Below are positions 17,652 to 31,536 of a DNA stretch of 32,000 nt, one piece after another. Position 1 is the first letter of the stretch; every line of letters starts with the position of its first letter. The stretch spans positions 810,001-842,000 of the forward strand of contig NZ_LNTB01000001.1 of the NCBI RefSeq assembly GCF_001462395.1. Reading direction: 5' to 3'. The translations under genes and the position numbers were made by a program. Source of the DNA: Pyrodictium occultum. Lineage in GTDB: Archaea > Thermoproteota > Thermoprotei_A > Sulfolobales > Pyrodictiaceae. A model generated the notes under the pieces. That model did no database searches and was not told the DNA's origin. It worked only from the letters and a program-made list of their open reading frames with translations.

Positions 17652-20600
17652 TTAGAGTATGGGCTGCACGCTGGGCTTCGACTGGTAGGTGTATTTCTCG
17701 GGGCTCGCCTTCCTCACCCATGCCAGGAACGCCTTGGTCTCCTGCATGGTTGTCACTATGTCGAGCAGCAGTATCGATATAGTGTTGGCTACGTCGAAGC
17801 TGTTGTGGGCGCCGCTCCAGCCCCAGTGCCACGGCACGTTTACCACGTAGACCTCCCTGCCCGCTATCCTCAGCTTCGGCATACGGTTGGTCACCAGGGC
17901 TCTCACGTATATCCTGTTGCGGTTGTTGCCCAGCTCGACAATATCGCCGCTCTTTATCCCGAGCTTCTCAGCCAGCTCGACCGGTATCTCCGCGAAGGGC
18001 TCCGGCACCATCTCGGCGAGATAGGGGACGTTCCTGGTCATTATGCCGGTGTGCCAGTGCTCCTCCAGCCTATTCTCGGTAACCACTACCACCTCGGACC
18101 CGCTGGGAGCGTACTTCTTCAGCTCCTCGTAGCTAGCCGTAATCGCCTTGTAGAGCTCTGGCATCTGCTCCGGCGGCTCTATGTAGAAGAGGTTCTCTAT
18201 CCTCCTCCACGCCAGCGCCGGGTACTCCGTCGCCAGCTCCAGGCTCGGGCTCTCGCCGGGCTCGAAGTGGAACGGGTAGTCGATGCTGTACGCCCAGACC
18301 TTGCCGTCGGGCCCTAGGGTGGCGTACCACTCGCCGTACCGGGATATTAGCTCCTTCACGCACTTCTTGTAGTTGTCGGGGCTGCCGTCGACGCAGGACT
18401 TGAACTCGTTGATGAACTTGTCGTGCACCCGGCGCCACTCCTTCCAGTCCTTGTATACTATGGTCTTGCCGTTGACGGTCTTGGATCCCTTGAAGTAGGG
18501 CTTGTAGAAGTTCGCCTTGCCGTAGTCGAGCACCAGCTCGGGGTCGTAGTAGAAGCTCTCGCACATCGGGCACTTGATTCCAAGCTCCTCCACGGTCTTT
18601 ACCTCGTAGCCGCCGCCGGGCTTCCAGAACACTATCCTGCCCACGGTCTTGCCGTAGCGTATCATAGCCTCCGGGTCGGCTGCGCCGGTGAATATGTCGG
18701 CCGTGGTCTTCTGGCTGCAGCGCTCGTTGAGGCATGTCCAGGCCCGCTTGTAGAACTTTCCTATCAGGAAGTTGTGGCCGGGTATGAACGCTGGTCTCAT
18801 CTCACCAGTCTTGGCGTCTACTATGTCGCCGGCCTCGCCCAGTATCTCGACCGTCTTGCCGTCCAGCTCGGGGCCTACAGCCCACCTGCCCGCCTCGAAG
18901 GTGAACCTGTCTTTGCGGCCGAAGGTCTTCTCTAGCGTGTAGAGGTTGTAGAGTATCCTCACGTTTCTGGGCCAGCTCCATCCCCAGTCCTTGTAGAGCC
19001 TCAGCGGCGCCTTGGCTCCAGGGTGTGTGAGGGTGCCGCTGTCCAGCAGCCCGTCGGGCTGGCCGGGCGACCGCGGTGCCGAGACCCTCCTCGCGGCCAG
19101 CACCCTATTGTGGGCCCAGTCGTACTGGCCATAGTAGAGGTCGACGGCCGCGTCTATCTCCTTGTAGACGAGTACTGGGTCTACCTCCTGGTAGTCGCTC
19201 CACGGGTACCTGTCACTGCTGTAGTTCATGTAGGGGGCTATCCTCCGCCTGTACAGCTCCACAAGAGTATCGGCCTCGGGATGCTTCACCAGCACGCGCT
19301 CCACGTGCTTGCCGTACTCCTCGCTGGGCAGCTTCGCCAGCCCAGCCCTCCTCATGTGCTCCCAGAGCTTGTACATTATCCACAGGTCCGGCTTGGCGTC
19401 GCCGGGCGGCGAGACCACGCGGTGCTGCCACTGTATCCAGCGGTTGCTGTTGGTTATGCTGCCCTCCTTCTCGTACTGGAAGGCTGCGGGGAGGAAGACG
19501 TCGGCGAACCAGGCTGTCTCCGTGAGGAAGATGTCCGAGACGACTAGGAACTTGAGCGCGGAGAGCGCTGCCATAGTCATCTTGGAGTCTGCGTCGCTTA
19601 TCGCTATGTTCTCGCCGAACAGCCACATAGCCTCAATCTTGCCGCCCAGCTTCCTAGTCCTCGGGTCATCGGGCAATAGTACGCCCATCCACCAGTTGTT
19701 CTCGGTGTAGCCCTTGTTGAAGGGCAGGTCGCTGATAACCACGCTGTCCTCGTCCCAGGGCCTGTCCTCGGGGTCGGTGCCGACGAAGATCCCCATGGAC
19801 AGCTCGTAGCGGCGCCAGTTCATGAACCACCATGACCAGAGCAGCGCCGTGCTGTTGACCGTGAGCCTGCAGTTGTCGCCCTTCTCGTCGCAGCCGCTGC
19901 ACTTCAGCCCCAGGGCCTTGCAGGTCTTCATGCTGGGGCGCCAGTTGAAGGCGTCGGGGAAGCCCTTGAGCTTCCACTCCTGGTAGGCGCGCACCTGCTT
20001 ACTGTTGGTTGGTATCTTCACGTAGCCTGGGAATATGTGGCTCAGTATGCAGAGGTCGGTGGTGCCCTGCACGTTGCTGTGGCCGCGGTAGGGGTTGAGG
20101 CCGCCGCCGGGGAAGCCCAGGTTGCCGAGGACCAGCTGGACCAGCGCGGCCATTCGGGTGTTCTGGGTCCCCACGTGGTGCTGGGTGAGCCCCATAGCCC
20201 ACTCTATGGAGGCGAACCTCTTGAAGTTTGTTGTTACACCGCTGTTCTCGACAAAGAGCTTCGCTATCTGTCTAAGCTTCTCGACCGGTATACCGGTTAT
20301 CCTCGAGACCTCCTCGGCGGTGAACCTCTTTGCTATATCCTTTATCTCCGAGATCTCCTCCAGGTCTATGTTGAACCTCTTGGCGTACTCCCTGAACGTG
20401 GGGAGCTGGTCTACGGGCGGGTTGCGCTCGTAGAACGCGTAGTGGAGAAGGTAGTACATCACGGGTATGTCGGTCCCGGGCCTGTGGAAGGCGAACACCT
20501 GGGCCTTGGAGGCTGTGCGGCCGTACTTCGGGTCGACGACTACCAGGGTGAGGGTGCCGCGCTTAATACCCTTCATCACGTGCCTCATGGAGACCGGGTG

Positions 20601-21332
20601 GGCCTCGGCGGGGTTGCCGCCTAGGATGAGGTAGACACTGATGTACTGGGTGTCGGGGAAGCTCTGAGTCTGGGCCCCGAAGCCCACGGTGCCCGCTAGG
20701 CCGGCCACGGTGGTGGAGTGGCAGCGGCGCGCATCATGGTCTATATTGTTGCTGCCGAGGAGCATTGAGATCTTCCTTATCAGGTATGCCTCCTCGTTCA
20801 GCATCTTAGCCCCGGCCATTATCATGAGCGGGTACTGGTTGCCCAGTCGGAAGTAGCAGCCCTTCCTGCTGCCGCACAGCTTCCCGTCGTAGGGGTGGTA
20901 AGAGCGCACCGCGCCAGCATTCTCCCCGAGTATCTCCTTCATCCTCCTCGCTATGTAGGCGAACGCCTCCTCCCAGGTCACCGGCTTCCAGACGGGCTTG
21001 TACTTCTCCAGCACCCTCCGGAGCTCGTTGGAGTCCCTGGCGGCGAGTATCTCCTCGGGCCGGGGCTTGGGGTTTACACGTATCAGCGGCTTCCTCGCCC
21101 GCAGCCCGTTGTAGGCGCCGAAGAGCTGGATGGAGGCCTTGCCCTTGGCGCAGAGCTTGCCCTCGTTAAGCGGGTTATCGGGGTCGCCCTCGAGGTAGAC
21201 TACCTTGTCGCCCCTCTTGTAGAATATGATGCCGCAGCCCACGCTACAGTAGGTGCAGACACCCCGGACCTCAACGGTCTCCTCGAGGTTCTTGCCCCCT
21301 ATCTCGCCGAGACGGTAGCGCTTCGGGGCCAT
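17652..21332 (-). CDS. fdnG: Formate dehydrogenase-N-type catalytic alpha subunit (bis-MGD molybdo/tungstopterin oxidoreductase), Cys-type, with large insertions
   Basis: ORF track, 1226 aa. It is collinear with E. coli FdnG as I recall it. VCTYCSVGCG is the N-terminal [4Fe-4S] site. DARRCHSTTVAGL aligns with ARVUHGPTVASL, so Cys replaces Sec. Other matches: GGNPAEAHPV, VVDPKYGRTAS, GLTQHHVGTQNTRMAALVQLVLGNLGFPGGGLNPYRGHSNVQGTTD. Confidence 0.95.
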   Translation of the reverse strand: MAPKRYRLGEIGGKNLEETVEVRGVCTYCSVGCGIIFYKRGDKVVYLEGDPDNPLNEGKLCAKGKASIQLFGAYNGLRARKPLIRVNPKPRPEEILAARDSNELRRVLEKYKPVWKPVTWEEAFAYIARRMKEILGENAGAVRSYHPYDGKLCGSRKGCYFRLGNQYPLMIMAGAKMLNEEAYLIRKISMLLGSNNIDHDARRCHSTTVAGLAGTVGFGAQTQSFPDTQYISVYLILGGNPAEAHPVSMRHVMKGIKRGTLTLVVVDPKYGRTASKAQVFAFHRPGTDIPVMYYLLHYAFYERNPPVDQLPTFREYAKRFNIDLEEISEIKDIAKRFTAEEVSRITGIPVEKLRQIAKLFVENSGVTTNFKRFASIEWAMGLTQHHVGTQNTRMAALVQLVLGNLGFPGGGLNPYRGHSNVQGTTDLCILSHIFPGYVKIPTNSKQVRAYQEWKLKGFPDAFNWRPSMKTCKALGLKCSGCDEKGDNCRLTVNSTALLWSWWFMNWRRYELSMGIFVGTDPEDRPWDEDSVVISDLPFNKGYTENNWWMGVLLPDDPRTRKLGGKIEAMWLFGENIAISDADSKMTMAALSALKFLVVSDIFLTETAWFADVFLPAAFQYEKEGSITNSNRWIQWQHRVVSPPGDAKPDLWIMYKLWEHMRRAGLAKLPSEEYGKHVERVLVKHPEADTLVELYRRRIAPYMNYSSDRYPWSDYQEVDPVLVYKEIDAAVDLYYGQYDWAHNRVLAARRVSAPRSPGQPDGLLDSGTLTHPGAKAPLRLYKDWGWSWPRNVRILYNLYTLEKTFGRKDRFTFEAGRWAVGPELDGKTVEILGEAGDIVDAKTGEMRPAFIPGHNFLIGKFYKRAWTCLNERCSQKTTADIFTGAADPEAMIRYGKTVGRIVFWKPGGGYEVKTVEELGIKCPMCESFYYDPELVLDYGKANFYKPYFKGSKTVNGKTIVYKDWKEWRRVHDKFINEFKSCVDGSPDNYKKCVKELISRYGEWYATLGPDGKVWAYSIDYPFHFEPGESPSLELATEYPALAWRRIENLFYIEPPEQMPELYKAITASYEELKKYAPSGSEVVVVTENRLEEHWHTGIMTRNVPYLAEMVPEPFAEIPVELAEKLGIKSGDIVELGNNRNRIYVRALVTNRMPKLRIAGREVYVVNVPWHWGWSGAHNSFDVANTISILLLDIVTTMQETKAFLAWVRKASPEKYTYQSKPSVQPIL

Positions 21333-21447
21333 GTAGCCGAGGGCCCTCCTAACGCTACCCGGCAGCGCGGCGAGCGTGGCAACCGTCGCGGCGGTTTTTC
21401 AGGAAGTTCCGTCTGTCCAGGCGGAGAACATGGCCCGACTGTGCCAA
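21333..21447 (-). other. Remnant or frameshifted twin-arginine (Tat) leader of the formate dehydrogenase alpha subunit
   Basis: My translation of one frame, from TTG 21447: (M)AQSGHVLRLDRRNFLK. The fdnG frame immediately continues KTAATVATLAALPGSVRRALGY-MAPKRY. The two halves are offset by 1 nt at the A5 run (T5 on + at 21395-21399). The fdnG frame has TGA just 5' of the run (21401-21399). Confidence 0.6.
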
Positions 21448-21488
21448 GGCTGGCAGGGCACCCCACGCAGCCCCTTAACATCGCTGTT

Positions 21489-21507
21489 GTTTAAAATATA
21501 TTTTCGG
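21489..21507 (-). promoter_or_regulatory. TATA-box candidate for the fdh operon
   Basis: The + strand reads gtttaaaatatattttcgg, which is aaaatatattttaaa on the minus strand. It is centred about 50 nt upstream of TTG 21447. It lies in a 190-nt AT-rich spacer (21481-21669). Confidence 0.4.
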
Positions 21508-21669
21508 TATCAGTGCCGATTTTAGTGGATAACCGGTGTTTAAGGCAGCCATCGTATTAGCGTGATAATTTAACCTATAATTCGAATCACACATAGTATA
21601 CGTTATATACGTGAAATGGGCAGCCATCACGGTGTTTTTGGAGGATTCGCGCCGGCCGCCCCCCGAGGG

Positions 21670-22455
21670 CTATGGGCTGCAGAGCCTCTCCATGTCCCTC
21701 GCAGCCTGCCTCTCGAGGTGGCGTATGCCGAGCCTCCTGTACTCCTCCAGCTCCATCCCCAGCCCCCTGCAGAGCCTGCCGCGGGGCGCCGCGGGGTCCA
21801 GGCCCGGCTCCAGAATATAGGCCTGCTTGGGGCCCAGGGGGTTCTTGGGCTCCCTGCTGCGGAGGGCCTCCCTCGTGTTTATGTGGGCAAACGCCAGCGG
21901 GCTTGAGGCGAGGAGCCCGGAGCCTACGAGGACCAGCCTCTCGGCCGCCCTGGCCGGGTCGCTGGCGCGCAGCTCGCCGCGGAGCCTGCAGAGCCGCCCC
22001 AGCACGCCCGGGAGCCTCTCTACCAGGCTCCAGCTCATAGCCGCCGCCAAGGTGTCCAGGTAGCCCCCGGCGTGGAGGGGGAGCGCCGCCTCCGCCCCCG
22101 CCTCCTCCATGAACGCCTCCAGGCCCCGGAGCACCCCCGGCTCCAGCCAGGGCATGTCGCCCGGCGCTACCAGGAGCACCTTGCCCCGGAGCCCCCCGAG
22201 CCCTGCCAGCGCGGCGGCGGGGCCGCCGCAGCCGAGCCACGGGGGGTCGTAGATGCAGCCGTCGAGCCCCGCGGCCTCGGTGTAGAGGCGGCACCTCTCC
22301 CCGCTCCTGGTGGCCGCGTAGACGAGGCTTGCGCCCGCCTCCCGGAGCGCCTCAGCCACCCTGGCTATGGAGACCTCGCCGTCGACGAGGGCTAGGAGCT
22401 TGTCGCCCCCGAACCTCCTCCCCTCGCCCCCGGCCAGCACCAGGCCTATCCTCAT
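21670..22455 (-). CDS. mobA: Molybdenum cofactor guanylyltransferase MobA with C-terminal extension
   Basis: Track ORF starts at 22473; the ATG at 22455 gives [21 protein letters not shown] (LAGG.G.R.G.DK motif). [11 protein letters not shown] is the P.D.P region. About 60-70 aa extend beyond a typical ~200-aa MobA. Confidence 0.8.
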
Positions 22456-22859
22456 CCCTTGCGCGCCCCACACTCCACCTCAACCACTACCCGATCGCCG
22501 GGGAGGAGGGGCTCGAGGCGCCTGCAGGCGACCAGCTCCAGCACCCGTGGCCCGTGCCGGCTGAGGAGCGGGCGGATAAGCATAGCCTCCACGCTGCCCT
22601 CCCGCGTCCTGACACGGGCCCTCCAGGCATAGACGGCGCCCAGCCTCCTACCCTCCCAGATGGTCTCGGGGATGACGAGGGGCTCGCACTCCCCGGCCAG
22701 CTGCCTCCAGTCGACGCCAGCCTCTATGTTCAGGGTGCCGGGGAAGGGCCTGCAGCCGAGGAGCCGCTCGAACCACCCGCTGTAGTAGGGGTGGGAGACG
22801 TAGCGGCCGCCCTCGCCGAAGCCCGGGGCCCTCCTGCCCTCCACCAGCCTAGAGCCCAT
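22452..22859 (-). CDS. ribK: CTP-dependent riboflavin kinase, archaeal type (MJ0056 family)
   Basis: ORF track, 135 aa. [34 protein letters not shown] matches the archaeal RibK G.GEG.Y......Y...F...LGF.P..GTLN pattern. [11 protein letters not shown] is the H....E..A segment. Its stop overlaps the mobA ATG (ATGA at 22455-22452). Confidence 0.75.
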
Positions 22860-22892: not shown

Positions 22893-23649
22893 CTAAGAAG
22901 ATAGCCTAGTGCCCCAGGGGCGGCCCCGGCCATAGAAGCCGCCTTGGCTGCCCCGAGCCGCCGGCATACCCCCGGGCCCCCGCCTCCCCGAGGCCGCGTA
23001 GAGGGCGAGGCCTGCGAGAAGGCCGGCCAGGGCCAGGGGCTCCAGCCCCCAGAGCCCCTGGTAGGGGTCCTCGAAGCGGAGCACGAGCGTCCCGCTGCCC
23101 GACGGGACGCGGACGAGGATCACGTTGGCCTCGGCATCCCTCGCCAGGGGGACCGGCGACCCGTTGAAGTAGGCCCTCCAGTGGGGGTACCAGGCCTGGC
23201 TCACCAGGAGCCAGGCAGGCTTATCGGGCTCCACGCTGAACTCTATCAGCCCGTCGCCGACGTGCATGCCCGACACATGAAGCCTGGGCGGCCGGTAGAA
23301 CGCGTACACCAGCTCCCCCAGGAACTCCTCCTCGGCCCTGCTGTGGCTGTAGAGGCGTGGTAGAACATGTTAAGCGAGACAAAGACGGCCAGCCCCCTGC
23401 CCGCCCTCCTCGCCGCCACCACGGGGGTCCCGTTAGCCTCCAGGAGCACGGAGTTCCAGGACCCGCCGCTGTAGACCGTGGCGACCCATGCGTCTCCCTG
23501 GTAGCTGTACTCGGCCTCCCAGCCAGCGGCGCCGGGCACCGAGCTCGGCGGGCTAGATATCGCCGGCCCTGGAGGCGGGGGAACCCGGCGCCGAGGTAGC
23601 TGTGGGCGAGGAGGAGAGCAAGCAGCACAGCCGTGGAGAGGAACACCAT
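22893..23649 (-). pseudogene. Frameshifted secreted/membrane-anchored protein, third paralogue of the extracytoplasmic domain found in the two wHTH membrane proteins
   Basis: Three overlapping track ORFs in three frames. 23649 starts with signal peptide MVFLSTAVLLALLLAHSYLGAGFP. The next frame reads GWEAEYSYQGDAWVATVYSGGSWNSVLLEANGTPVVAARRAGRGLAVFVSLNMFYHA. The last frame reads LYSHSRAEEEFLGELVYAFYRPP...WYPHWRAYFNGSPVPLARDAEANVILVRVPSGSGTLVLRFEDP...LEPLALAGLLAGLALYAASGRRG. The first junction is at the G5 run 23577-23581. The second is near 23350-23362. Confidence 0.5.
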
Positions 23650-23691
23650 GGTCTATAACACGTCCTCCAGCCTGCCCCGCTGGCACCGCTC

Positions 23692-25140
23692 CTAGCCCCT
23701 GGGGGCCCCCAGGGCCGCCGAGCCCTCCCCGAGGACGTAGTGGTAGCGGTAGAGCAGCCTCGTAGGGTAGACCTCGTACTCGAAGAGGGATTTGCGCAGC
23801 TCGAGGAGGCCGTAGCCGGCCAGCCTCCTACAAGCCTTCAGCACCGCGCCGGGCGGTATCGAGAGCCTGGCCGCTATCTCGTGCACCGTTACCCCGGGCT
23901 CCCGGGCGGCCAGGCGGGCTATCTCCTCGTAGAGCGGGTCGACGGCCAGTAGCGCCGCCGGCAGGTCCTCGGGGTATACGTAGAGCCGCCCCCGGGCCTC
24001 CGGCACCGAGGCCACGGCGCCCCGCAGCTCGAGCAGGGTGAGGCGGCGGCACAGCCTACGCCAGCCCGCCCCCAGCCTGGCCGCCAGCTCCTCAAGGCTC
24101 ATAGGCCCCGAGTCCCTCAGCAGCTCGACTATCCTCGCATCCATCTCGCGCGGCTTGTAGAGCCTGGCCAGGGGCCTCAGCACCAGCAGTCGGATCCTGC
24201 GGGGCGCCAGGCAGGCCAGCGAGGCGGCGAGCAACGCCAGGTAGGCGGGGAATGCCACGAGGGCTGCCGCGGCCAGGGCTCCGGGCAGCCCGCCTCCCGC
24301 GGCAGCCGCCACTCTCCCGAAAGGCCTGAGGAGGGCCAGGGCCGCGTTGTGCAGCACAGCCTTCACACGGTGCCTTGCCGGAGGGGGCTCCGGGGTGACG
24401 GCCTGCATCTCCTCCACCACTATGCCTGCTAGGAGCCCTGCCATCTCCGCCCCGTTGCCCTGGCTCACCACCGCCTTAACCGGGTTGAACGCGGCAGTGA
24501 CAACGACTCCGCGGCCGTACCTGTTGGCCAGTATGGCTGGGTGTCCCTCCTGGAAGGCGGCGAGCACACGGGCTCCCTGGGGCTCGAGGTGCATGGCGCC
24601 GTAGGTGTCGTTGTAGGCGTATACCCGCCCCCGGTAGACTATGTCGTAGAGGGGCGTGTCGGCGCTACTGGATGCTACACCGGCTACCCTGGCCCCAGCC
24701 ATGGACTCTAGAAGAGGGTGCCAGTGCTGCACGAAGGTGTTCATGCCTATGAAGAGCAGGTGGCCTCCCCTAACATACTCCGCCAGCGCCTCTATCTCAG
24801 CTGGTGTAAGCCGCCCGCCGTAGGTGAAGAGCCTGTTAAGGTCTGGTATGAGCACTGCGTCGTAGCGCCAGAGGAACGCGGGATCGCTGAGCCTTGCGCG
24901 CTCCGCGCCGGCGGAGGGGTAGCTCTTGCTCAGGTACAGCACTCTCACATCCACTTGGAGCCCGGCGGCGGCAGCGCTGTCGGCTATGCTGCGGGCCCAT
25001 AGTATGTCGTCAAAATCGCTGGCCACCACTAGCATGGAGCGGGGGCGGCCCGGGCCCCCGGCAGCGGAGGCGGCGGAGACGCTGCAGGCTAGGATAGCGG
25101 CTGCCAGCACCACTAGAACCGGGGCAGCGCTCCTAGGCAA
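23692..25140 (-). CDS. Membrane-spanning protein: signal peptide + extracytoplasmic domain + TM segment + two cytoplasmic winged-helix (ArsR/MarR-like) domains
   Basis: ORF track, 482 aa, TTG start. The N-terminus is MPRSAAPVLVVLAAAILACSVSAASAA. The hydrophobic block is GALAAAALVAFPAYLALLAASLACLA. The wHTH-like segments are RIVELLRDSGPMSLEELAARLGAGWRRLCRRLTLLELRG and VTVHEIAARLSIPPGAVLKACRRLAGYGLLE. It is a paralogue of 27170..28459. Confidence 0.7.
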   Translation of the reverse strand: MPRSAAPVLVVLAAAILACSVSAASAAGGPGRPRSMLVVASDFDDILWARSIADSAAAAGLQVDVRVLYLSKSYPSAGAERARLSDPAFLWRYDAVLIPDLNRLFTYGGRLTPAEIEALAEYVRGGHLLFIGMNTFVQHWHPLLESMAGARVAGVASSSADTPLYDIVYRGRVYAYNDTYGAMHLEPQGARVLAAFQEGHPAILANRYGRGVVVTAAFNPVKAVVSQGNGAEMAGLLAGIVVEEMQAVTPEPPPARHRVKAVLHNAALALLRPFGRVAAAAGGGLPGALAAAALVAFPAYLALLAASLACLAPRRIRLLVLRPLARLYKPREMDARIVELLRDSGPMSLEELAARLGAGWRRLCRRLTLLELRGAVASVPEARGRLYVYPEDLPAALLAVDPLYEEIARLAAREPGVTVHEIAARLSIPPGAVLKACRRLAGYGLLELRKSLFEYEVYPTRLLYRYHYVLGEGSAALGAPRG

Positions 25141-25188
25141 ATACTACACCCTTCGCCTGAGCCTGGAGAGCCTCTAGGCGGCCTCCGG

Positions 25189-25196
25189 CTTTAAAG
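25189..25196 (-). promoter_or_regulatory. TATA-box candidate (ctttaaag) for the 482-aa gene
   Basis: The palindromic TTTAAA at 25190-25195 lies about 50 nt upstream of TTG 25140, in the 79-nt spacer after the GT2 gene. Confidence 0.35.
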
Positions 25197-25219
25197 CTGC
25201 CAGCACGGCTCTCCAACAA

Positions 25220-26677
25220 TTATGCAGCGCCCCATGTAATCCTCTCGCGGAGCAGCGCTCTTATCATGGCATCAGTCTTAGCCACCGCCAGCAGCGGGAT
25301 GTAGAGGAGCGTGTATATGAACGCGTAGGGCGCTATCCTCACGGCACTCCCTGCCCCGTACTCGGCCCCATACGCTACTATAATGCTGAGAGACCCCATT
25401 ATGACCGTGGAAGCCAGCGCGGCCAGATAGGCTGCCAGGAAGACCGGCAGGGGGAGGGCCAGCACCTCTAGCCCGAGCAGCCCGTAGACAGCCACTATAG
25501 CTGCCAGCGTTATGTAGCCGGCTACATGGAGCAGGGGGAGGAGATACTCGACGCCCAGAAGGTAGACAGCCAGCAGCCGCCCATAGAGGTAGGAGGCGTG
25601 CCCAGCCCTCCGGAGGCCCAGCAGGTTTGCATGCTTGAGGAGAACCTGGAGGCCCCCAGCATACCAGCGTATCCGCTGCCTATAGAGGCCCCGGAGGCTC
25701 GAGGGCGTGATGGTGTAAGCCACGGCGCTGTGCTCGTAGCCAGTCCTCAGCCCCCTCTTCCACACCATTACGGTGAGGTCGAAGTCCTCCGCTAGAGTGT
25801 CCTCCGGTATGCCACGCTCAGCCAGGGGCTTCAATACTATGGAGCGGAAGGCGCTGAACGCGCCCGAGAGTATCAGCGTGGCCCTGCTGACCGCGTCCTC
25901 CATGAAGCGGCCCAGCTCAAAGCCGAGGAAGTACTCTATGCGCTGCATCCAGTAGAGGAGGCCCCCATGCCCGGCCGGGATGAGGCGGCCGCACACGGCC
26001 CCCAGCCCGTCCTCGTAGAGGAGCCTGGACACGAGCCTCCTGACCGCGTCCCTCTCCGGCACCGTGTCAGCGTCAAGGACGATTATGACGTCTCCAGTGG
26101 CTCTCCGTATACCCGTGGTTAGCGCCTCGGCCTTCCCCAGGTTGACCTCGTGCCTCACAGCCCTTATGAACGGGTACCTCCTAGCATAGCTGCTCACTAT
26201 AGACCAGGTGCCGTCCGTGGAGCCGTCGTCAACGATTATCACCTCCATCAGCTCCCTCGGGTAGTCCTGATGGAGGAGGGCGCGCAGGACACGGCCGATA
26301 ACCTGCTCGCCATTGAACACCGGGATCTCTACCGAGACCCTCGCCGGTATCCCCGGGTGCAGCCGCCCCCCGGGATGAGCCTTGTAGACCCTGGCCAGCA
26401 CGAGCTTACTGAAGACCCTCGACGCGTAGAAGGCTGCCGTCACGCCCCCGATGAGGCTGTAGAGGAGGACGACCAAGGGGAGCCCCGGGCTAGCCGCGCC
26501 CCGGCCGAGGTGGAGGGCCTCCACCAGCCGGTCCATGATCACGCGGGCTAGGAGGAGCCCTAGGGCGAACCAGAGTACGCCCCCGGCTATCCCCACGAGC
26601 CTGGTCTGCCACCTGGCTGCACTCCCCAGCCTGTAGCCCTTCCCCGCGGTCATTGAGCCCTCTACGCTACCGGTCAC
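25220..26677 (-). CDS. Processive family-2 glycosyltransferase (PgaC/NodC/cellulose-synthase-like beta-glycan synthase), multi-TM
   Basis: ORF track, 485 aa (GTG 26677; ATG alternative at 26653). Motifs in canonical order: VIIVDDGSTDGT, VLDADT, SGAFSAFR, TLAEDFDLT and YRQRIRWYAGG (QxxRW). There are two N-terminal and several C-terminal TM helices. Confidence 0.9.
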   Translation of the reverse strand: MTGSVEGSMTAGKGYRLGSAARWQTRLVGIAGGVLWFALGLLLARVIMDRLVEALHLGRGAASPGLPLVVLLYSLIGGVTAAFYASRVFSKLVLARVYKAHPGGRLHPGIPARVSVEIPVFNGEQVIGRVLRALLHQDYPRELMEVIIVDDGSTDGTWSIVSSYARRYPFIRAVRHEVNLGKAEALTTGIRRATGDVIIVLDADTVPERDAVRRLVSRLLYEDGLGAVCGRLIPAGHGGLLYWMQRIEYFLGFELGRFMEDAVSRATLILSGAFSAFRSIVLKPLAERGIPEDTLAEDFDLTVMVWKRGLRTGYEHSAVAYTITPSSLRGLYRQRIRWYAGGLQVLLKHANLLGLRRAGHASYLYGRLLAVYLLGVEYLLPLLHVAGYITLAAIVAVYGLLGLEVLALPLPVFLAAYLAALASTVIMGSLSIIVAYGAEYGAGSAVRIAPYAFIYTLLYIPLLAVAKTDAMIRALLRERITWGAA

Positions 26678-27189
26678 AGCCTCCCCCCTCTCCTAATGAC
26701 CTCTGCCGCCTCAAGCGAGAGGAGTAGCGCCACGCTGCCGAGGAGGAGCAGGGGCCCGGCAATACTGTGCATCGATGCCGCAGCCTCCACGCCAAGCTTC
26801 TCAGCGGCAGCGGCTACGAGGAGTATGCGCAGTATGTTGGCGAGGTATATGACGAGGAAGCCTGCCGTGAGCCAGTAGAGCCTCCTCCAGAGCCTCATGG
26901 GGAGGAGCAGCGAGGCGGCTAGGAATATCGTGTAGGATACCAGGCCGCTGCAATGCCAGTCTATCCTAAGCCCGACCACCTCCCCGCCGCGGATGATGTA
27001 GATAGTCCTCCCTACCCTTACATGGCTCACCCCGGCCAGGTCCAGTATGGCGCTCAGGCTGGCCGCCTCCACCTCCAACGGCCTGTCGCCGGCCAGGCCC
27101 GCCGCAGCCCAGACCAGGACCGCGGCCGCTAGGGCGGCAGCCGCCCGGCCGGCCAGCCTGCCCAGCAGCCTAGGCATAGGCCTCGCCAC
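26674..27189 (-). CDS. Minimal exosortase/archaeosortase-family protein (171 aa)
   Basis: ORF track, 171 aa (GTG 27189; ATG at 27177). It has the ordered Cys/Arg/His hallmarks of the family, set in TM helices: RIDWHCSGLVSYTIFL, VIYLANILRILLV and ASMHSIAGPLLLLG. Its TGA 26676-26674 overlaps the GT2 GTG 26677. Its start overlaps the upstream gene's stop (27172-27170). Confidence 0.6.
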   Translation of the reverse strand: MARPMPRLLGRLAGRAAAALAAAVLVWAAAGLAGDRPLEVEAASLSAILDLAGVSHVRVGRTIYIIRGGEVVGLRIDWHCSGLVSYTIFLAASLLLPMRLWRRLYWLTAGFLVIYLANILRILLVAAAAEKLGVEAAASMHSIAGPLLLLGSVALLLSLEAAEVIRRGGRL

Positions 27190-28459
27190 CGCGGGCTAGA
27201 AGCCTGGGTACCAGCCTAAGGGCCCAGTCGGAGAGCCGGTAGCCGTAGCCGGCCTCCTCCACGACGTTATGCACGCGTAGAACATCGATATGATGCTTAA
27301 CGGTGGACTTGCTCATGCCCAGAGCGCGGGCGAGCTGAGATATACTGGCAGGCGACTGGAGCAGCGCCTCCGCTATCCGGCGCCGCGGCTCAGCCTCGAG
27401 GAGGAATGCGAGCACGGCTTCAACGGCTCTCCCCCTCCTATAGTATATCTGCGTGTTCAGCACCCTGCGGGTCTCGAGGAGCCCCGCGTCCACGAGCAGG
27501 GTTAGGTGCCAGAGCGCCGGCGTCCTCTTCAGCCCCAGCTCCCTCACAACCATGCCGAGCGTCACGTAGCCCCGCCTCTCAGCCAGCTCCAGGATCTTAG
27601 CCCTCACCGGGTGCTTGGCGGCGTCCGCCCCGCGTATTCGGTGGGCCAGTACCGCTACAGCCGCCCAGGGCCTCATGAGGTGCCGGAGCATCCTCTCTCC
27701 ACGGCTGCTGCTGGAGCTAGACTGGGCGGCGGCAGCGCTGAGGGCGGCGGCGACAGCTGCGGCGGCCAGAGCCGTGCCCAGGCCCCCGGCCAGGTAGCTG
27801 TGGAGGGCCCGGACCAGCCTGGTGAACCCCTTCTCCCCGTCGATGGTGGGCCAGACCGGGTTGAAGAAGAGGAGCACCAGCCTCCCACGGCCATAATGCA
27901 TCGCAACTATCGCCGGGTCGCCGTCGCTGAACCGCGCCAGCACCCTCCAGCCCGCCTGAGGCAGGACGCGGAAACGGCGGTACTTCCACGTCTTGTACAC
28001 TATGCTCGCCGGAGCACCGTGGAGCTGGAGGCCGAGGGAAGCGTGGATAGCGTGAACACCGCTCCCCTCATCCTTAGCCACCAACCCTACTCTTGCGAGC
28101 ACGCCCGGCTCGTAGACGCTGATAGCCCGCAGCGTGTTGTAGCCGAGCACCACGGTGGCGCCCTTCTCCGCGAGCTCTAGCAGCCTCTCCCCGAGGCCCC
28201 GGGGCCAGCCGCCGCAGCTGGGGGCGTTGTAGTCGAGCACGTACACGTAGCCGGGGACCGTGTCCGGCAGCACGCACTTCGCGGGCGTGAACCCGGCCCC
28301 AAGCTCCTCGAGGAAGAGTAGATCGCCCCGGTCGCTCGCCAGGAATACTGCCCCCTGCCCCGCCAGGGCCGGCGCGGCTGCAGCGGCCGCAAGCGCGGCG
28401 GCCAGCGCCACCGCCACCGGCTGGAGCCTTGCCCCCACCCTGCCCATAGCCGTGTACAC
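27170..28459 (-). CDS. Membrane-spanning protein: signal peptide + extracytoplasmic domain + TM segment + two cytoplasmic ArsR-type winged-helix domains
   Basis: ORF track, 429 aa (GTG 28459; ATG at 28447 gives MGRVGARLQPVAVALAAALAAAAAAPALAG). The TM segment is GLGTALAAAAVAAALSAAAA. The wHTH segments are HPVRAKILELAERRGYVTLGMVVRELGLKRTPALWHLTLLVDAGLLE and RRRIAEALLQSPASISQLARALGMSKSTVKHHIDVLRVHNVVE. Confidence 0.7.
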   Translation of the reverse strand: MYTAMGRVGARLQPVAVALAAALAAAAAAPALAGQGAVFLASDRGDLLFLEELGAGFTPAKCVLPDTVPGYVYVLDYNAPSCGGWPRGLGERLLELAEKGATVVLGYNTLRAISVYEPGVLARVGLVAKDEGSGVHAIHASLGLQLHGAPASIVYKTWKYRRFRVLPQAGWRVLARFSDGDPAIVAMHYGRGRLVLLFFNPVWPTIDGEKGFTRLVRALHSYLAGGLGTALAAAAVAAALSAAAAQSSSSSSRGERMLRHLMRPWAAVAVLAHRIRGADAAKHPVRAKILELAERRGYVTLGMVVRELGLKRTPALWHLTLLVDAGLLETRRVLNTQIYYRRGRAVEAVLAFLLEAEPRRRIAEALLQSPASISQLARALGMSKSTVKHHIDVLRVHNVVEEAGYGYRLSDWALRLVPRLLARGGEAYA

Positions 28460-28670
28460 CCTAGGCTCCGTCGAGCGGCGCCCCAGTCCTCCTGGCGGCC
28501 GAGGCTGCCCCCGGGGCCTCGGCCCCTCCCAGCCCTCCCGCGAGCGTAATGCAGCACAGCGCCGGTGCGCGGCCCCCCCCGGGGAGCCCTCTGGTATAGC
28601 TGTGCGCGACCGGCCTTATAGCGGGGATAGAACGGTGCTCGAACACCCAGGGGTACGGGGGCCCGAGGGG

Positions 28671-29429: not shown

Positions 29430-29746
29430 AGCCCCCAGGAGGCGCCCCCGGCCCCTGCCCCGCAGTAATTAGGATTCAAGCCCCCAGGAAGCAGGCACGG
29501 CAGCCCCGAAGACGCCTAGGTGGAGCACTGGCGCGGAACACGTGATGCCGGCGCCGAGCAGCCCTGTAGACCCCTACAGGCAACCAAACAATTACATGGT
29601 AAATCTCATAATAGTTTATTCCAAGCCTTAATACGTATTTATAATTCAGTTCGAGATACCGCAGCCTAATAACCGACTATAAGCTATAAACGGAATGGCC
29701 AGGACCCCGGGTGTTACCCGGCGAGGGCGGCAGCCGGGGCAGCTCA

Positions 29747-29788
29747 CCCCAGGAGCCCGGAGGGATCGTCGCCTCCGGGCTCCTGGGG
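29747..29788. repeat. Perfect 17-bp inverted repeat with 8-nt loop (strong hairpin) in an intergenic spacer
   Basis: ccccaggagcccggagg (29747-29763), loop gatcgtcg (29764-29771), cctccgggctcctgggg (29772-29788). The right arm is the exact reverse complement of the left arm. Confidence 0.9.
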
Positions 29789-29827
29789 AGGCGCCTCACA
29801 CCGCATTACAGGACCTTCCTCTCTCCC

Positions 29828-29837
29828 TTTATAAATT
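29828..29837 (+). promoter_or_regulatory. Consensus-like TATA element tttataaatt
   Basis: It lies 40 nt downstream of the hairpin and about 185-195 nt upstream of the wHTH regulator start. A second candidate, acatataatgg, lies near 29938-29948. Which one, if either, drives the regulator is unknown. Confidence 0.3.
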
Positions 29838-30021
29838 ATGTTATTCCTTAGTGAAGGATGCCCCGGGATTCCATGCGCCTCCCCTGCGGGCTTGTGGAGC
29901 TGTCTCGAAGCTGATTGTTCGAGAAACCGTCTAGCCTACATATAATGGTGTGCCCCAGCTTTCCTGGCGGATTAGGAGTTGCATAGATTAGAGTGTGCAG
30001 AGTACTAACATTACAGTTGTG

Positions 30022-30447
30022 ATGGTTGTGATGGAGGTAATATTCGTGGAGGAGCACCCGCTCCGGGCCCGGATACTCCAGCTGCTCAGGGAGCATGGCG
30101 CGGTATACTATAGCGAGCTCCTGCGCAGCCTTGAGGCCTCGCGGGCTACGCTCAGCTGGCACCTCTACGTGCTGCTGCGGGAGGGGCGTGTCGGGGCCAT
30201 CCGGTACCGTAGGTATACCATCTACTACCTCCGGGGCCGCGAGCTCGAGGCCGTCAGGAGTATAGCTGGGAGGGATAGGCTGTTCTGCAGCGTTCTACGC
30301 GACCTGGCGGCGGGCGCCCGGCCGGAGGAGGTGGCGGCTCGCTACGGGATAAGCGTCAGGGGGCTAGAGGGCCTGCGGGAGCTCGCCAGGAGGCTCCGGG
30401 GCAGGCTCGATGAGGTCTGCGGCGAGGAGCAGAATGTAGGCGAGTGA
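30022..30447 (+). CDS. Small winged-helix (ArsR-like) transcriptional regulator
   Basis: Track ORF starts at 29995; the likely starts are ATG 30022 or 30031 (MEVIFVEEHPLRARILQLL...). HPLRARILQLLREHGAVYYSELLRSLEASRATLSWHLYVLLREGRV resembles the first wHTH of the 429-aa membrane protein. Confidence 0.7.
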   Translation: MVVMEVIFVEEHPLRARILQLLREHGAVYYSELLRSLEASRATLSWHLYVLLREGRVGAIRYRRYTIYYLRGRELEAVRSIAGRDRLFCSVLRDLAAGARPEEVAARYGISVRGLEGLRELARRLRGRLDEVCGEEQNVGE

Positions 30448-30747
30448 ATGGCTCCCAGGCCAATCCCCGGGCTCTCCACGCCCGACCCCCCAGCCAGGCC
30501 CCTGCCCGGGCGGGGGTGGAGGGGCCCCGAAGGGATAGGGGGCTGGAGACACGTCCCCTAGGGGCAGCGTATCCGGCGGCCAGGGGGATGAGGCCCCTGC
30601 CCCCAGGCCTCCCCTCGGGGAGCCTCCACTGCATCACCCTGGCGGCAGTCTAGGGGGCTCGCAGCCGGCCTCCGCTGGAGGCAGCCCTCCCCTGCGGCAC
30701 CCCTGGGCACTCCCCCGGGGCTCTAGAGCAGTAGTGTTCGAGAGCCG

Positions 30748-30765
30748 TACTATACCCCTTATATT
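30748..30765 (+). promoter_or_regulatory. TATA-like elements (gtactatacc / cttatatt) upstream of the secreted-protein gene
   Basis: They lie about 55-70 nt upstream of GTG 30820. A GGAGGTGG Shine-Dalgarno-like sequence at 30805-30812 lies 8 nt before the start. Confidence 0.4.
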
Positions 30766-30819
30766 GGCTGAAAGCCTCCCAGAGGCCCCGGCGGCCATGG
30801 AGTTCGGAGGTGGCTGGCG

Positions 30820-31536
30820 GTGAGGCTGCAGGGCAGGCGCAGGGCAACCCTACTAGTCATCCTGGCGGCGGTGGCAGCCCTGTCGGTAGCTAACGCGAGC
30901 GTTTTCGCCTACCGGACACTCTATGGCAACGTCAAGATAGCTGATATAACGCAGGGCCAGGACCAGACCAGCATAACGCAGTATGGCCTGGCATGCGTAG
31001 GCTTCTACACGAGCGACTCTATAGAGGATCGGGGTGTGCTGCCCACCGCGGGCACGAACTACAACGCTGCGCCGATAGGGACCACGAGCACCGGCGGCTG
31101 GTACGGCGTGAATGTAGTCCCCGGAGACGTTGCCTGCAGCTGGACAAACACGAGCACCAATAACACCAACACGCTCTACAAGACAGCGACAGTGTATATA
31201 AACGTCACTAACGGTGACTGGTACTTCAAGGACATACTCGGCTTCGGCTACCCCAACATAACGAGCAGCCCAAGCCCCGCCTACGTGACAGTGCGTGTCG
31301 AGGGAGCCCTCAGCAACACCAACATAACTGAAGCTCTACTGAAGATATACGATGCTAGTAGCGGGAACCTCAGAGGGCAGATAGACCTGAAGAACAACGG
31401 CGACTACATCAACTTCACGCTGATGCCCGGCCAGGGAGTCCAGATAGACCTGGATCTCTCCGCCACCGGTGCTGTATCACTCGACAACTTCACAGTGAGG
31501 TTCTACATATCGCCGAGCAGCGAGCAGCCTAGGTAG
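30820..31536 (+). CDS. Secreted, sequon-rich beta-type protein; candidate TasA/AbpA-like fibre subunit with SipW-type signal peptide
   Basis: ORF track, 238 aa, GTG start. The N-terminus MRLQGRRRATLLVILAAVAALSVANASVFAYRTLYGNV has a basic n-region, an h-region and an A.A..FAY segment resembling SipW-dependent signals. It has at least 8 N-x-S/T sequons (NAS, NTS, NNT, NVT, NIT x2, NFT x2) and no C-terminal anchor. It is followed by a signal peptidase gene. Confidence 0.6.
   Translation: MRLQGRRRATLLVILAAVAALSVANASVFAYRTLYGNVKIADITQGQDQTSITQYGLACVGFYTSDSIEDRGVLPTAGTNYNAAPIGTTSTGGWYGVNVVPGDVACSWTNTSTNNTNTLYKTATVYINVTNGDWYFKDILGFGYPNITSSPSPAYVTVRVEGALSNTNITEALLKIYDASSGNLRGQIDLKNNGDYINFTLMPGQGVQIDLDLSATGAVSLDNFTVRFYISPSSEQPR

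Follow-up and report, generated by a model that had tools for sequence, protein, structure and literature searches.

In ToxR and CadC an N-terminal OmpR-type winged helix-turn-helix (wHTH) domain lies inside the cell and a C-terminal sensor domain lies outside, and in ArnR an N-terminal wHTH domain is followed by C-terminal transmembrane helices. Such proteins fall within the transmembrane transcription regulators, an operational class defined by at least one predicted transmembrane segment together with a predicted DNA-binding domain in a single protein (Demey et al., 2023; PMC10269533). Here we describe two proteins, A and B, encoded in a 32,000-nucleotide stretch of the genome of the crenarchaeon Pyrodictium occultum (contig NZ_LNTB01000001.1, positions 810,001 to 842,000 of the forward strand; hereafter the window). 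Both contain a central hydrophobic helix together with matches to winged-helix models above cut-off and hence belong to this operational class. As in ToxR, TcpP, CadC, ChiS/TfoS and the Sulfolobus proteins ArnR and ArnR1 (PMC10269533, PMC6396743), an outer domain, a membrane anchor and a winged helix are predicted in one chain, and the gene adjoins genes for surface structures. Compared with ToxR and CadC, the order of the domains is reversed: a sensor led by a predicted signal peptide comes first and tandem winged helices of the ArsR/MarR type come last. Further differences are the glutamine-amidotransferase-like fold predicted for the outer domain and the pairing of two paralogues in one enzyme cassette. 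No OmpR/Trans_reg_C match is found in A or B with Pfam or NCBIfam models. Membrane-tethered winged-helix proteins are already known; what appears to be new is the four-part architecture of A and B (sensor first, glutamine-amidotransferase-like outer domain, tandem ArsR-type winged helices, paralogue pair in a sortase-synthase cassette), for which no description was found in Pfam, NCBIfam or the searchable literature.

The ArsR/SmtB family consists of small, soluble, homodimeric proteins that sense metals or other ligands at dedicated sites. In A the winged helices resemble them in exceeding the cut-offs of the family models (PF01022, NF033788) and in their canonical recognition helix (SKSTVKHHI), but A has two copies in tandem, which a large outer domain precedes and which are predicted to be anchored in the membrane, and no metal-site motif was identified. 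At 429 and 482 residues, and with an outer domain and a transmembrane segment after a predicted signal peptide, A and B are not small soluble repressors. The genes that lie between them invite comparison with the XrtG/Firmicu-CTERM and ArtF systems (TIGR03110, TIGR03111, TIGR04293; PMC12854382), in which a small exosortase-family protein is likewise encoded with a PgaC-like glycosyltransferase of family 2 (GT2). In relatives of the P. occultum locus the likeness extends to a PTPS_related (PF10131) protein with multiple transmembrane helices and to a secreted protein with a sorting-signal-like tail. As published, the XrtG system is made up of a CTERM protein, XrtG and glycosyltransferases; membrane winged-helix proteins are not listed (PMC12854382). 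A review places archaeosortases in part of the Euryarchaeota (PMC6098224), whereas the P. occultum copy sits in a crenarchaeon; ArtF is not among ArtA-E listed in the 2018 archaeosortase review.

We propose that A and B, two predicted bitopic membrane proteins, arose by an ancient duplication and may constitute a new family of archaeal transmembrane transcription regulators within an archaeosortase-GT2 cassette, a reading to which we assign a probability of roughly one half. The four genes follow each other head to tail on the minus strand in the order A, sortase, GT2, B, so that A and B bracket the sortase and the synthase (Table 1). The sortase open reading frame shares 20 nt with the end of A and 4 nt with the start of the GT2 gene; a gap of 79 nt separates the GT2 gene from B. 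A is 100% identical to a P. occultum protein annotated as 'ArsR family transcriptional regulator' and B is 100% identical to CF15_04465, annotated as 'hypothetical protein'. The G+C content of these genes is about 68%, and the proteins are rich in Ala, Leu and Arg. All four genes are intact and all family-invariant residues are kept.

A and B share one plan, consisting of a signal-peptide-like N-terminus, an outer domain of about 190-210 residues, one transmembrane segment, a short basic juxtamembrane helix and two winged helices. In B a linker separates the outer domain from the transmembrane segment, and the juxtamembrane helix that follows is Arg-rich. In every family member hydropathy gives an N-terminal hydrophobic stretch after an Arg or Lys plus one central hydrophobic helix. 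The three pairs of similar peptides from which a preliminary description of the locus had read a paralogy of the two proteins occupy aligned columns in a MAFFT alignment, and the third pair is also recovered by BLASTP (E=1e-8 with composition-based statistics). A hidden Markov model (HMM) built from A-type outer domains only recognizes 14 out of 14 B-type outer domains at 28-61 bits, compared with a maximum of 14.3 bits among 2,800 shuffled sequences. The corresponding A-only model of the cytoplasmic half reaches 18-56 bits with 11 of 12 B-type halves, in most cases 24-56 bits along about 135 residues, compared with a shuffle maximum of 9.2; P0028, the twelfth, scores only 4.8 bits. As these scores lie far above those of the shuffled controls, the similarity is not compositional, and this also holds for the N-terminal halves, for which that concern had been raised. 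Judged by sequence comparison, A and B are paralogues along their whole length, and both the shared architecture and the paralogy seen by eye are borne out.

In A, the motif ISQLARALGMSKSTVKHHIDVL, on which the second winged helix had been called ArsR-type, lies within a match to Pfam HTH_5 (ArsR, PF01022; residues 359-401, E=9.6e-11, 41.8 bits with the cut-off at 22) and within a match to NCBIfam NF033788 (56.3 bits, cut-off 55), the latter model matching A in two stretches. The first winged helix has an ArsR-like recognition helix (RT.A.WHL.LL) and is matched by the NCBIfam BigR model (residues 283-345); it resembles the ArsR family more weakly than the second. By profile and motif, both winged helices of A are ArsR-type with canonical recognition helices. 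The nearest entries of the Protein Data Bank (PDB) by sequence are the ArsR-family DNA binders YgaV, BigR, SmtB, PH1932 and Phr. The AlphaFold2 model of A, which was calculated with a nine-sequence alignment and has a mean pLDDT (per-residue confidence score) of 77.7, with the transmembrane and linker region below 50, contains two consecutive units of three helices and two strands: helices 280-292, 297-304 and 308-320 with strands 324-329 and 332-337, and helices 353-364, 369-376 and 380-392 with strands 396-399 and 402-405. Both units are predicted at pLDDT 83-96, and in Foldseek they match the tandem winged helices of SelB. The recognition helices are among the most conserved segments of A. 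In particular, S-K-S-T-V-K-H-H-I is largely invariant in A-type orthologues down to 36% identity, with Ser381, Thr382, His385 and Ile387 invariant.

The winged helices of B rest on homology to A and on Pfam, since the AlphaFold2 winged-helix model covers A only. Three Pfam models match B above cut-off, namely MarR_2 (29.7 bits, cut-off 27), HTH_24 (28.6 bits, cut-off 21.9) and DprA_WH (28.8 bits, cut-off 22.9), while the ArsR models remain below theirs (HTH_5 14 bits, NF033788 24.8 bits). The C-terminal halves of both proteins are thus predicted to consist of winged helices, as had been supposed.

The outer domain is assigned to a fold through AlphaFold2 and Foldseek only, as a profile of it gives nothing significant against PDB sequences (best E=0.29; the ThuA-like entry 4e5v at E=1.2). 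In the model of A this domain has pLDDT values that are mostly 84-91 per ten-residue block, with three blocks at 65-69, and the best Foldseek matches in the PDB are STM3548, the middle domain of glycoside hydrolase family 42 (GH42) enzymes and ThuA (E=2e-6 to 2e-5). The outer domain of B, modelled alone, reaches pLDDT 90.5 and a predicted TM-score of 0.91, and finds 7bob, 4oif/5dfa, 3tts, 7x87 and 6t5o at E=3e-11 to 1e-8 with TM-scores up to 0.66. The closest folds are the non-catalytic middle ('trimerisation') domains of GH42 beta-galactosidases, of the GH5 mannosidase Op5Man5 and of GH164 enzymes; the beta-1,2-glucosyltransferase of Ignavibacterium album (7vkw/7x87) is another close fold, and ThuA-like proteins (1t0b), STM3548 (2gk3) and true amidotransferases (1qdl) follow lower in the list. 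On these models the outer domain is a class-I glutamine-amidotransferase-like fold, and the impression of a class-I amidotransferase/ThuA-like domain formed from the letters of the sequence proves correct. No named Pfam family claims the domain at its gathering score: for B, Glyco_hydro_42M matches at E=1.7e-4 (21.6 bits against 25.8) and DUF4350 at E=2e-3 (18.9 bits against 30.4). A and B therefore resemble the GH42 'trimerisation' domain (PF08532), the ThuA-like proteins (1t0b, 4e5v), STM3548 (2gk3) and DUF4350 in fold by Foldseek and weakly in Pfam, but their domain is predicted to be extracytoplasmic, is fused to a transmembrane segment and winged helices, has its own set of motifs and stays below the Pfam cut-offs in sequence.

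In class-I amidotransferases the nucleophile is located at a strand-to-helix turn. In the family described here this turn reads G-x-N-T. Across 25 aligned members the invariant or nearly invariant residues of the outer domain are Asp39, Asp42, Asp72, Asn74, Gly96, Gly102, Asn104, Thr105, Gly121, Tyr151, Pro178, Gly186, Gly188 and Asn196, which form the motifs SD..D, D.N, G.NT, G.G and FNP (NP); Leu315 in the first winged helix is conserved in addition. No Cys or His is found among these columns, and a catalytic Cys-His-Glu triad is consequently not present. The outer domain is not an amidotransferase; its conserved residues look like a ligand-binding or contact surface.

In the two proteins of the window, A-L-A or A-S-A closes the N-terminal hydrophobic stretch, and in A the signal peptide is probably cleaved between A-L-A and Gly34. 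Charges are distributed unevenly around the central helix: the mean number of Lys and Arg per 15 residues over the 25 members is 2.92 after the transmembrane segment against 1.32 before it (Wilcoxon p=0.007), and the C-terminal part is net positive in all 25. A short second hydrophobic or amphipathic stretch follows the transmembrane segment. In the Pyrodictium proteins it contains four to five Arg residues (PRRIRLLVLRPLARLYKPRE) and so cannot span the membrane; a two-helix hairpin that would place the winged helices outside was rejected for these proteins on this ground. A topology with the N-terminus outside and the C-terminus inside is therefore the best-supported prediction.

Between A and B lie the genes of two membrane enzymes. 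The 171-residue protein, which the preliminary description had not named, is by its profile matches a member of the exosortase/archaeosortase family: Pfam Exosortase_EpsH (PF09721) matches at E=2.3e-12 and the TIGR04178 signature at 63 bits against a cut-off of 23, and the motifs of the Cys (WHCSG), the Arg (NILRIL) and the His (SMHSIAGP) can be seen. It comes nearest to the subfamilies ArtF (53.5 bits, cut-off 150) and XrtG (45.8 bits, cut-off 102.75). The 485-residue protein is, on the same kind of evidence, a membrane GT2 of the processive-synthase type, similar to PgaC, NodC and cellulose synthase. Pfam Glycos_transf_2 matches at E=8.6e-35 and a QRIRW motif is present; the best NCBIfam model is TIGR03937 PgaC_IcaA (E=1.6e-41), followed by the XrtG-associated glycosyltransferase TIGR03111 (E=3.4e-28, 98.6 bits against a cut-off of 364) and by NodC, all below cut-off. 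The P. occultum sortase and GT2 thus differ from the XrtG and ArtF systems in staying below the ArtF, XrtG and TIGR03111 cut-offs. In a Pyrodictium-like metagenomic lineage the two enzymes are fused into one protein of 647 residues (locus L003, 2521-4464), which argues for a physical joint action of both.

The family is rare. An exhaustive profile search of 1.84 billion representative sequences returned 43 matches, about 30 of which are 370-500 residues long. The 25 members that were aligned all have the same architecture and split into A-like and B-like subfamilies. P0055, with 533 residues, was discarded as an unrelated HTH protein in an unrelated context. When contigs were searched, loci were recovered by a distant B-type alignment and none by an A-type alignment, a null result that is uninformative since the latter did not even recover P. 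occultum.

In the contigs that contain A orthologues (45-62% identity) the gene order is a secreted protein of about 250 residues, A, sortase, GT2, B, an 840-residue PTPS_related (PF10131) protein with multiple transmembrane helices, and Memo. The full order is present in L001 and L010 and the core in L003 and L008; in L003 the secreted-protein gene is downstream, and the L008 contig ends within B. Most junctions of the cassette overlap in these relatives. A permuted order (B, GT2, A, ArtF, secreted protein) occurs in a Thermococcus sp. metagenome-assembled genome (MAG; L015, JALTBN010000020, 9956-17700) and in the metagenome contig L021. In L015 the secreted protein is followed by PTPS_related, the L021 contig ending earlier, and the sortase is a bona fide ArtF with 177.9 bits against a cut-off of 150. 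The ArtF subfamily thus has a conserved gene neighbourhood that is common to the Pyrodictium-like contigs and the Thermococcus MAG. In all, A adjoins the sortase in seven of seven loci and B adjoins the GT2 in 11 of 16; a tabulation of the neighbours across archaea, suggested together with the original observation, accordingly finds A and B embedded in a conserved sortase-GT2 cassette. Desulfurococcales MAGs and contigs (L013, L014, L017, L018 and L020) contain orphan B-type genes, around which neither a GT2 nor a sortase nor A is encoded within about 7 kb; such orphans fit a factor able to act in trans. The B-type gene of L013 adjoins genes for very large secreted proteins.

The outer domain recurs a third time, in a weaker form, at residues ~580-721 of the PTPS_related protein, where it scores 17.7 bits in a targeted search; the 844-residue protein P0038 was matched in the profile search of the whole library at E=1.6e-4. 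The small secreted protein ends in an (I/V)GVPE or VPEF motif. In L001, L008 and L010 an IGVPE(V/L) motif is followed by a transmembrane helix and an RR cluster, as in IGVPEVDAQGLAIVAPVAVAIMLYGRR and IGVPELELPGLIIGLALVLLLGYRR; the tails in L015 (the Thermococcus MAG, QVPEFPFLKPLF) and L003 are shorter and lack the helix and the cluster. No match to the NCBIfam sorting-signal models was obtained for this protein. From its tail and position it is nevertheless the obvious candidate for a substrate of the ArtF/XrtG-like archaeosortase.

Table 1. Positions of the features discussed, in window coordinates for P. occultum and in contig coordinates for the secreted-protein genes of related loci.
Feature	Position	Strand	Description
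A gene	27170-28459	-	Open reading frame, 429 residues from GTG at 28459; NCBI start at Met5 (28447) gives 425 residues
A signal-peptide-like N-terminus	28361-28459	-	Residues 1-33; Arg7/Arg11, Ala/Leu core, A-L-A before Gly34; hydropathy 2.19-2.53
A outer domain	27788-28351	-	Residues ~37-224; predicted class-I glutamine-amidotransferase-like; profile match to residues 33-220 of P0001
A transmembrane segment	27722-27781	-	Residues ~227-246, Ala-rich, then SSSSSSRGERMLRH; hydropathy 1.86; AlphaFold2 helix at low pLDDT
A winged helix 1	27437-27610	-	Residues ~284-341; recognition helix KRTPALWHLTLL; AlphaFold2 order helix-helix-helix-strand-strand, pLDDT 83-92
A winged helix 2	27191-27391	-	Residues ~357-423; ArsR-type; recognition helix SKSTVKHHIDVL
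Exosortase/archaeosortase-family gene	26674-27189	-	Open reading frame, 171 residues
GT2 synthase gene	25220-26677	-	Open reading frame, 485 residues
B gene	23692-25140	-	Open reading frame, 482 residues, TTG start
B outer domain	24415-25038	-	Residues ~35-242; predicted class-I glutamine-amidotransferase-like
B transmembrane segment	24199-24288	-	Residues ~285-314, then PRRIRLLVLRPLARLYKPRE; hydropathy 2.17; Lys/Arg in 15 residues: 5 after, 0 before
B winged helix 1	23977-24147	-	Residues ~332-388; DprA_WH at residues 334-380; homologous to A-type winged helices
B winged helix 2	23761-23949	-	Residues ~398-460; MarR_2 and HTH_24 at residues 412-451; matches A-type profile
PTPS_related remnant	22893-23686	-	Three reading frames, frameshifted; part of outer-domain copy and last transmembrane helix kept
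Small secreted protein, L001	3893-4645		
Small secreted protein, L008	5268-6089		
Small secreted protein, L010	9473-9994		
Small secreted protein, L015	14424-15209		
Small secreted protein, L003	7370-8059		

In P. occultum itself the cassette appears to be partly decayed, unless the frameshifts in the PTPS_related remnant downstream of B are sequencing errors. With the 840-residue protein of L001 as a query, tblastn recovers 23052-23258 (E=1.5e-8) and 23225-23518 (E=6e-5), together covering residues 653-804, and the outer-domain HMM scores the remnant at 20.7 bits. The first of its reading frames has a signal- or transmembrane-like start at the ATG at 23649, the second an outer-domain fragment and the third a beta-sandwich with the last transmembrane helix. 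Neither a GVPE-tailed gene nor Memo is present in the window, and the substrate sequences of the relatives give no significant tblastn match there. A palindromic TATA-like element, GCTTTAAAGC, is found at 25188-25197 in the gap between the GT2 gene and B, ~50 nt 5' of the TTG start, so that B may own a promoter in P. occultum; in the relatives B overlaps the GT2 gene.

If A and B are transmembrane regulators, their outer domains would face the outside and their winged helices the cytoplasm. The outer domains might bind or monitor the extracellular product, either the nascent glycan or the sorted protein; alternatively, they could pair with each other and with the domain copy in PTPS_related. 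Their state would be passed through the single transmembrane helix to the tandem winged helices, which may function as an intramolecular pseudo-dimer that binds operator DNA at the promoter or promoters of the cassette without release from the membrane. Assembly of the surface polymer would in this way be coupled to transcription of the operon; A would signal the state of the sortase branch, and B that of the synthase branch. The regulator reading is favoured because the winged helices of A reach the curated thresholds of a DNA-binding family, because the recognition helices are highly conserved and the cytoplasmic halves uniformly basic, and because a membrane-anchored class of DNA-binding proteins has precedents in archaea. 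This class is accepted, averages about four members per archaeal genome and is enriched in Thermoproteota (PMC10269533).

Several observations weigh against this regulator reading. The cytoplasmic half of B gives no significant sequence match to solved DNA-binding proteins (best E=0.03). An inverted-repeat scan of four intergenic regions (25141-25219, 28460-28670, 29470-30021 and 30448-30819) returned GC-rich hairpins only and no motif or convincing palindrome common to the regions upstream of A and B; these upstream regions are not orthologous, as the relatives have another gene 5' of A. The N-out/C-in arrangement, which the preliminary description had proposed and which the charge statistics favour, is less secure in several distant B-type members. 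Their second segment, GLLPY followed by about 12 apolar residues, is fully hydrophobic, and if it spans the membrane the winged helices of these members would be outside. The transmembrane segment of the A-type proteins is weakly hydrophobic (1.1-1.9). Finally, A and B form a tightly overlapping operon with the enzymes. The strict pairing of A with the sortase and of B with the GT2, and the recurrence of the outer domain in PTPS_related, agree at least as well with a stoichiometric membrane complex.

Such a complex is the basis of the alternative that survives best, which we regard as possible though on balance rather unlikely. A and B would be accessory subunits of a membrane machine that do not bind DNA, B as a BcsB- or PgaD-like co-synthase partner of the GT2 and A as the partner of the ArtF-like sortase. 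Outside the cell, the outer domains of A and B and the related one of PTPS_related would assemble into a hetero-oligomeric platform on which the nascent glycan or the sorted protein is handled, while the cytoplasmic winged helices would serve protein-protein contacts. BcsB and PgaD are co-synthase subunits, and RodZ is a membrane-anchored protein whose cytoplasmic Xre-type HTH domain at the N-terminus binds MreB. They provide analogies for a single-span partner whose large outer domain escorts the product of a GT2 and for a bitopic HTH protein that makes protein contacts; no relationship of A or B to any of them was found in sequence or fold. The accessory role agrees with the translational coupling of an operon in which stop and start codons overlap, and with adjacencies (A to sortase, seven of seven; B to GT2, 11 of 16) that survive the permutation of the gene order between lineages. 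It also agrees with the solved relatives of the outer fold nearest to it, which are non-catalytic oligomerisation domains of GH42-type glycosidases, with the outer-domain copy in PTPS_related (17.7 bits; E=1.6e-4 for P0038), and with the lack of a significant match between the winged helices of B and solved DNA binders. It accounts less well for winged helices in A that pass the curated ArsR/SmtB thresholds and keep a canonical, conserved recognition helix, for the net positive charge of the cytoplasmic half in all 25 members and for orphan B-type genes that have no GT2 beside them. Nor do such proteins figure among the components in the description of the Firmicutes XrtG/GT2 system (PMC12854382).

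An improbable elaboration unites both functions. The outer domains of A, B and PTPS_related would form one extracellular hetero-oligomer that joins the archaeosortase, the processive synthase and PTPS_related in a single surface-assembly machine, and the winged helices would either tether the operon DNA there, allowing co-transcriptional, membrane-localised assembly, or be switched by a sortase-dependent processing of A and B.

Less likely again is an outer domain that acts as an enzyme, a hydrolase or a transferase on a polymer, with winged helices that are vestigial. Asp39, Asp42, Asp72, Asn74, Asn104, Thr105, Asn196 and Tyr151 are kept across 25 diverse members, which suggests a conserved ligand site, but no Cys or His is invariant, the strand-to-helix turn is G-x-N-T, the closest solved structures are those of non-catalytic domains and conservation in the winged helices matches that in the outer domain. 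The least likely reading of all is a sortase-driven, regulated proteolysis of transmembrane regulators, in which the archaeosortase-like enzyme or a different membrane protease would act on A and/or B themselves, a cut at the outer edge of the transmembrane segment (near GGGL/GGLG) shedding the outer domain and so switching the activity or stability of a membrane-bound winged-helix stub: the succession of a small-residue motif, a transmembrane segment and an Arg cluster (AGGGLPGA...LACLAPRRIR in B, AGGLGTA...RGERMLRH in A) is reminiscent of a tripartite sorting signal, and the window has no GVPE-type substrate for a sortase that is intact with its Cys, Arg and His, but the Gly-rich motif is not conserved in distant members, the signal is internal rather than C-terminal, cleavage at the outer face leaves the winged helices bound to the membrane, and a much more convincing candidate substrate, whose GVPE motif is conserved, is encoded in the cassette of the relatives.

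On the opposite strand near the cassette, 29995-30447 (+) encodes a small soluble ArsR-type protein of 150 residues (HTH_20, E=1.2e-8), and 3' of it 30820-31536 (+) encodes a secreted, Asn/Thr-rich protein of 238 residues that has no sequence match in Pfam, NCBIfam or the PDB. These two could be a separate pair of a regulator and a surface protein. The 238-residue protein was considered as the missing sortase substrate or as a cannula-type protein and was rejected, as it has no C-terminal transmembrane helix and no family match. A perfect 17-nt inverted repeat (CCCCAGGAGCCCGGAGG / CCTCCGGGCTCCTGGGG, 8-nt loop) lies at 29747-29788, between a HAD phosphatase gene and the small ArsR-like gene; it has no Rfam match, and Rfam and tRNA scans of the whole window are empty. 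On the other side, the neighbours at 17652-22859 (-) look unrelated to the cassette by eye and include a 1226-residue molybdopterin oxidoreductase-like protein, a possible MobA-like protein (21670-22473) and a possible archaeal riboflavin-kinase-like protein (22452-22859).

Membrane-anchored transcription factors number in the thousands and few of them are understood, in archaea essentially only ArnR and ArnR1. A and B offer a sharply defined case, with an unusual sensor-first topology, a confidently predicted outer fold and an obvious likely target operon. The comparison also defines a conserved six-gene archaeal cassette (GVPE-tailed secreted protein, A, ArtF-like sortase, GT2, B and PTPS_related), provides the orphan ArtF subfamily with a candidate substrate and a candidate polysaccharide partner, and extends exosortase-type systems into a crenarchaeon that is known for its elaborate extracellular matrix. 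A conceptual surprise would arise only if the hetero-oligomer or the processing scenario is true, and the former would then represent a new mode of coupling between protein sorting, polysaccharide synthesis and transcription in archaea; otherwise the gain is a testable system and an advance in the annotation of ArtF-type cassettes. If the winged helices do not bind DNA, A and B would exemplify, in archaea, HTH domains taken over as structural components of a synthase complex. If they do, the locus would provide a simple system for feedback of a surface polymer on transcription at around 100 °C.

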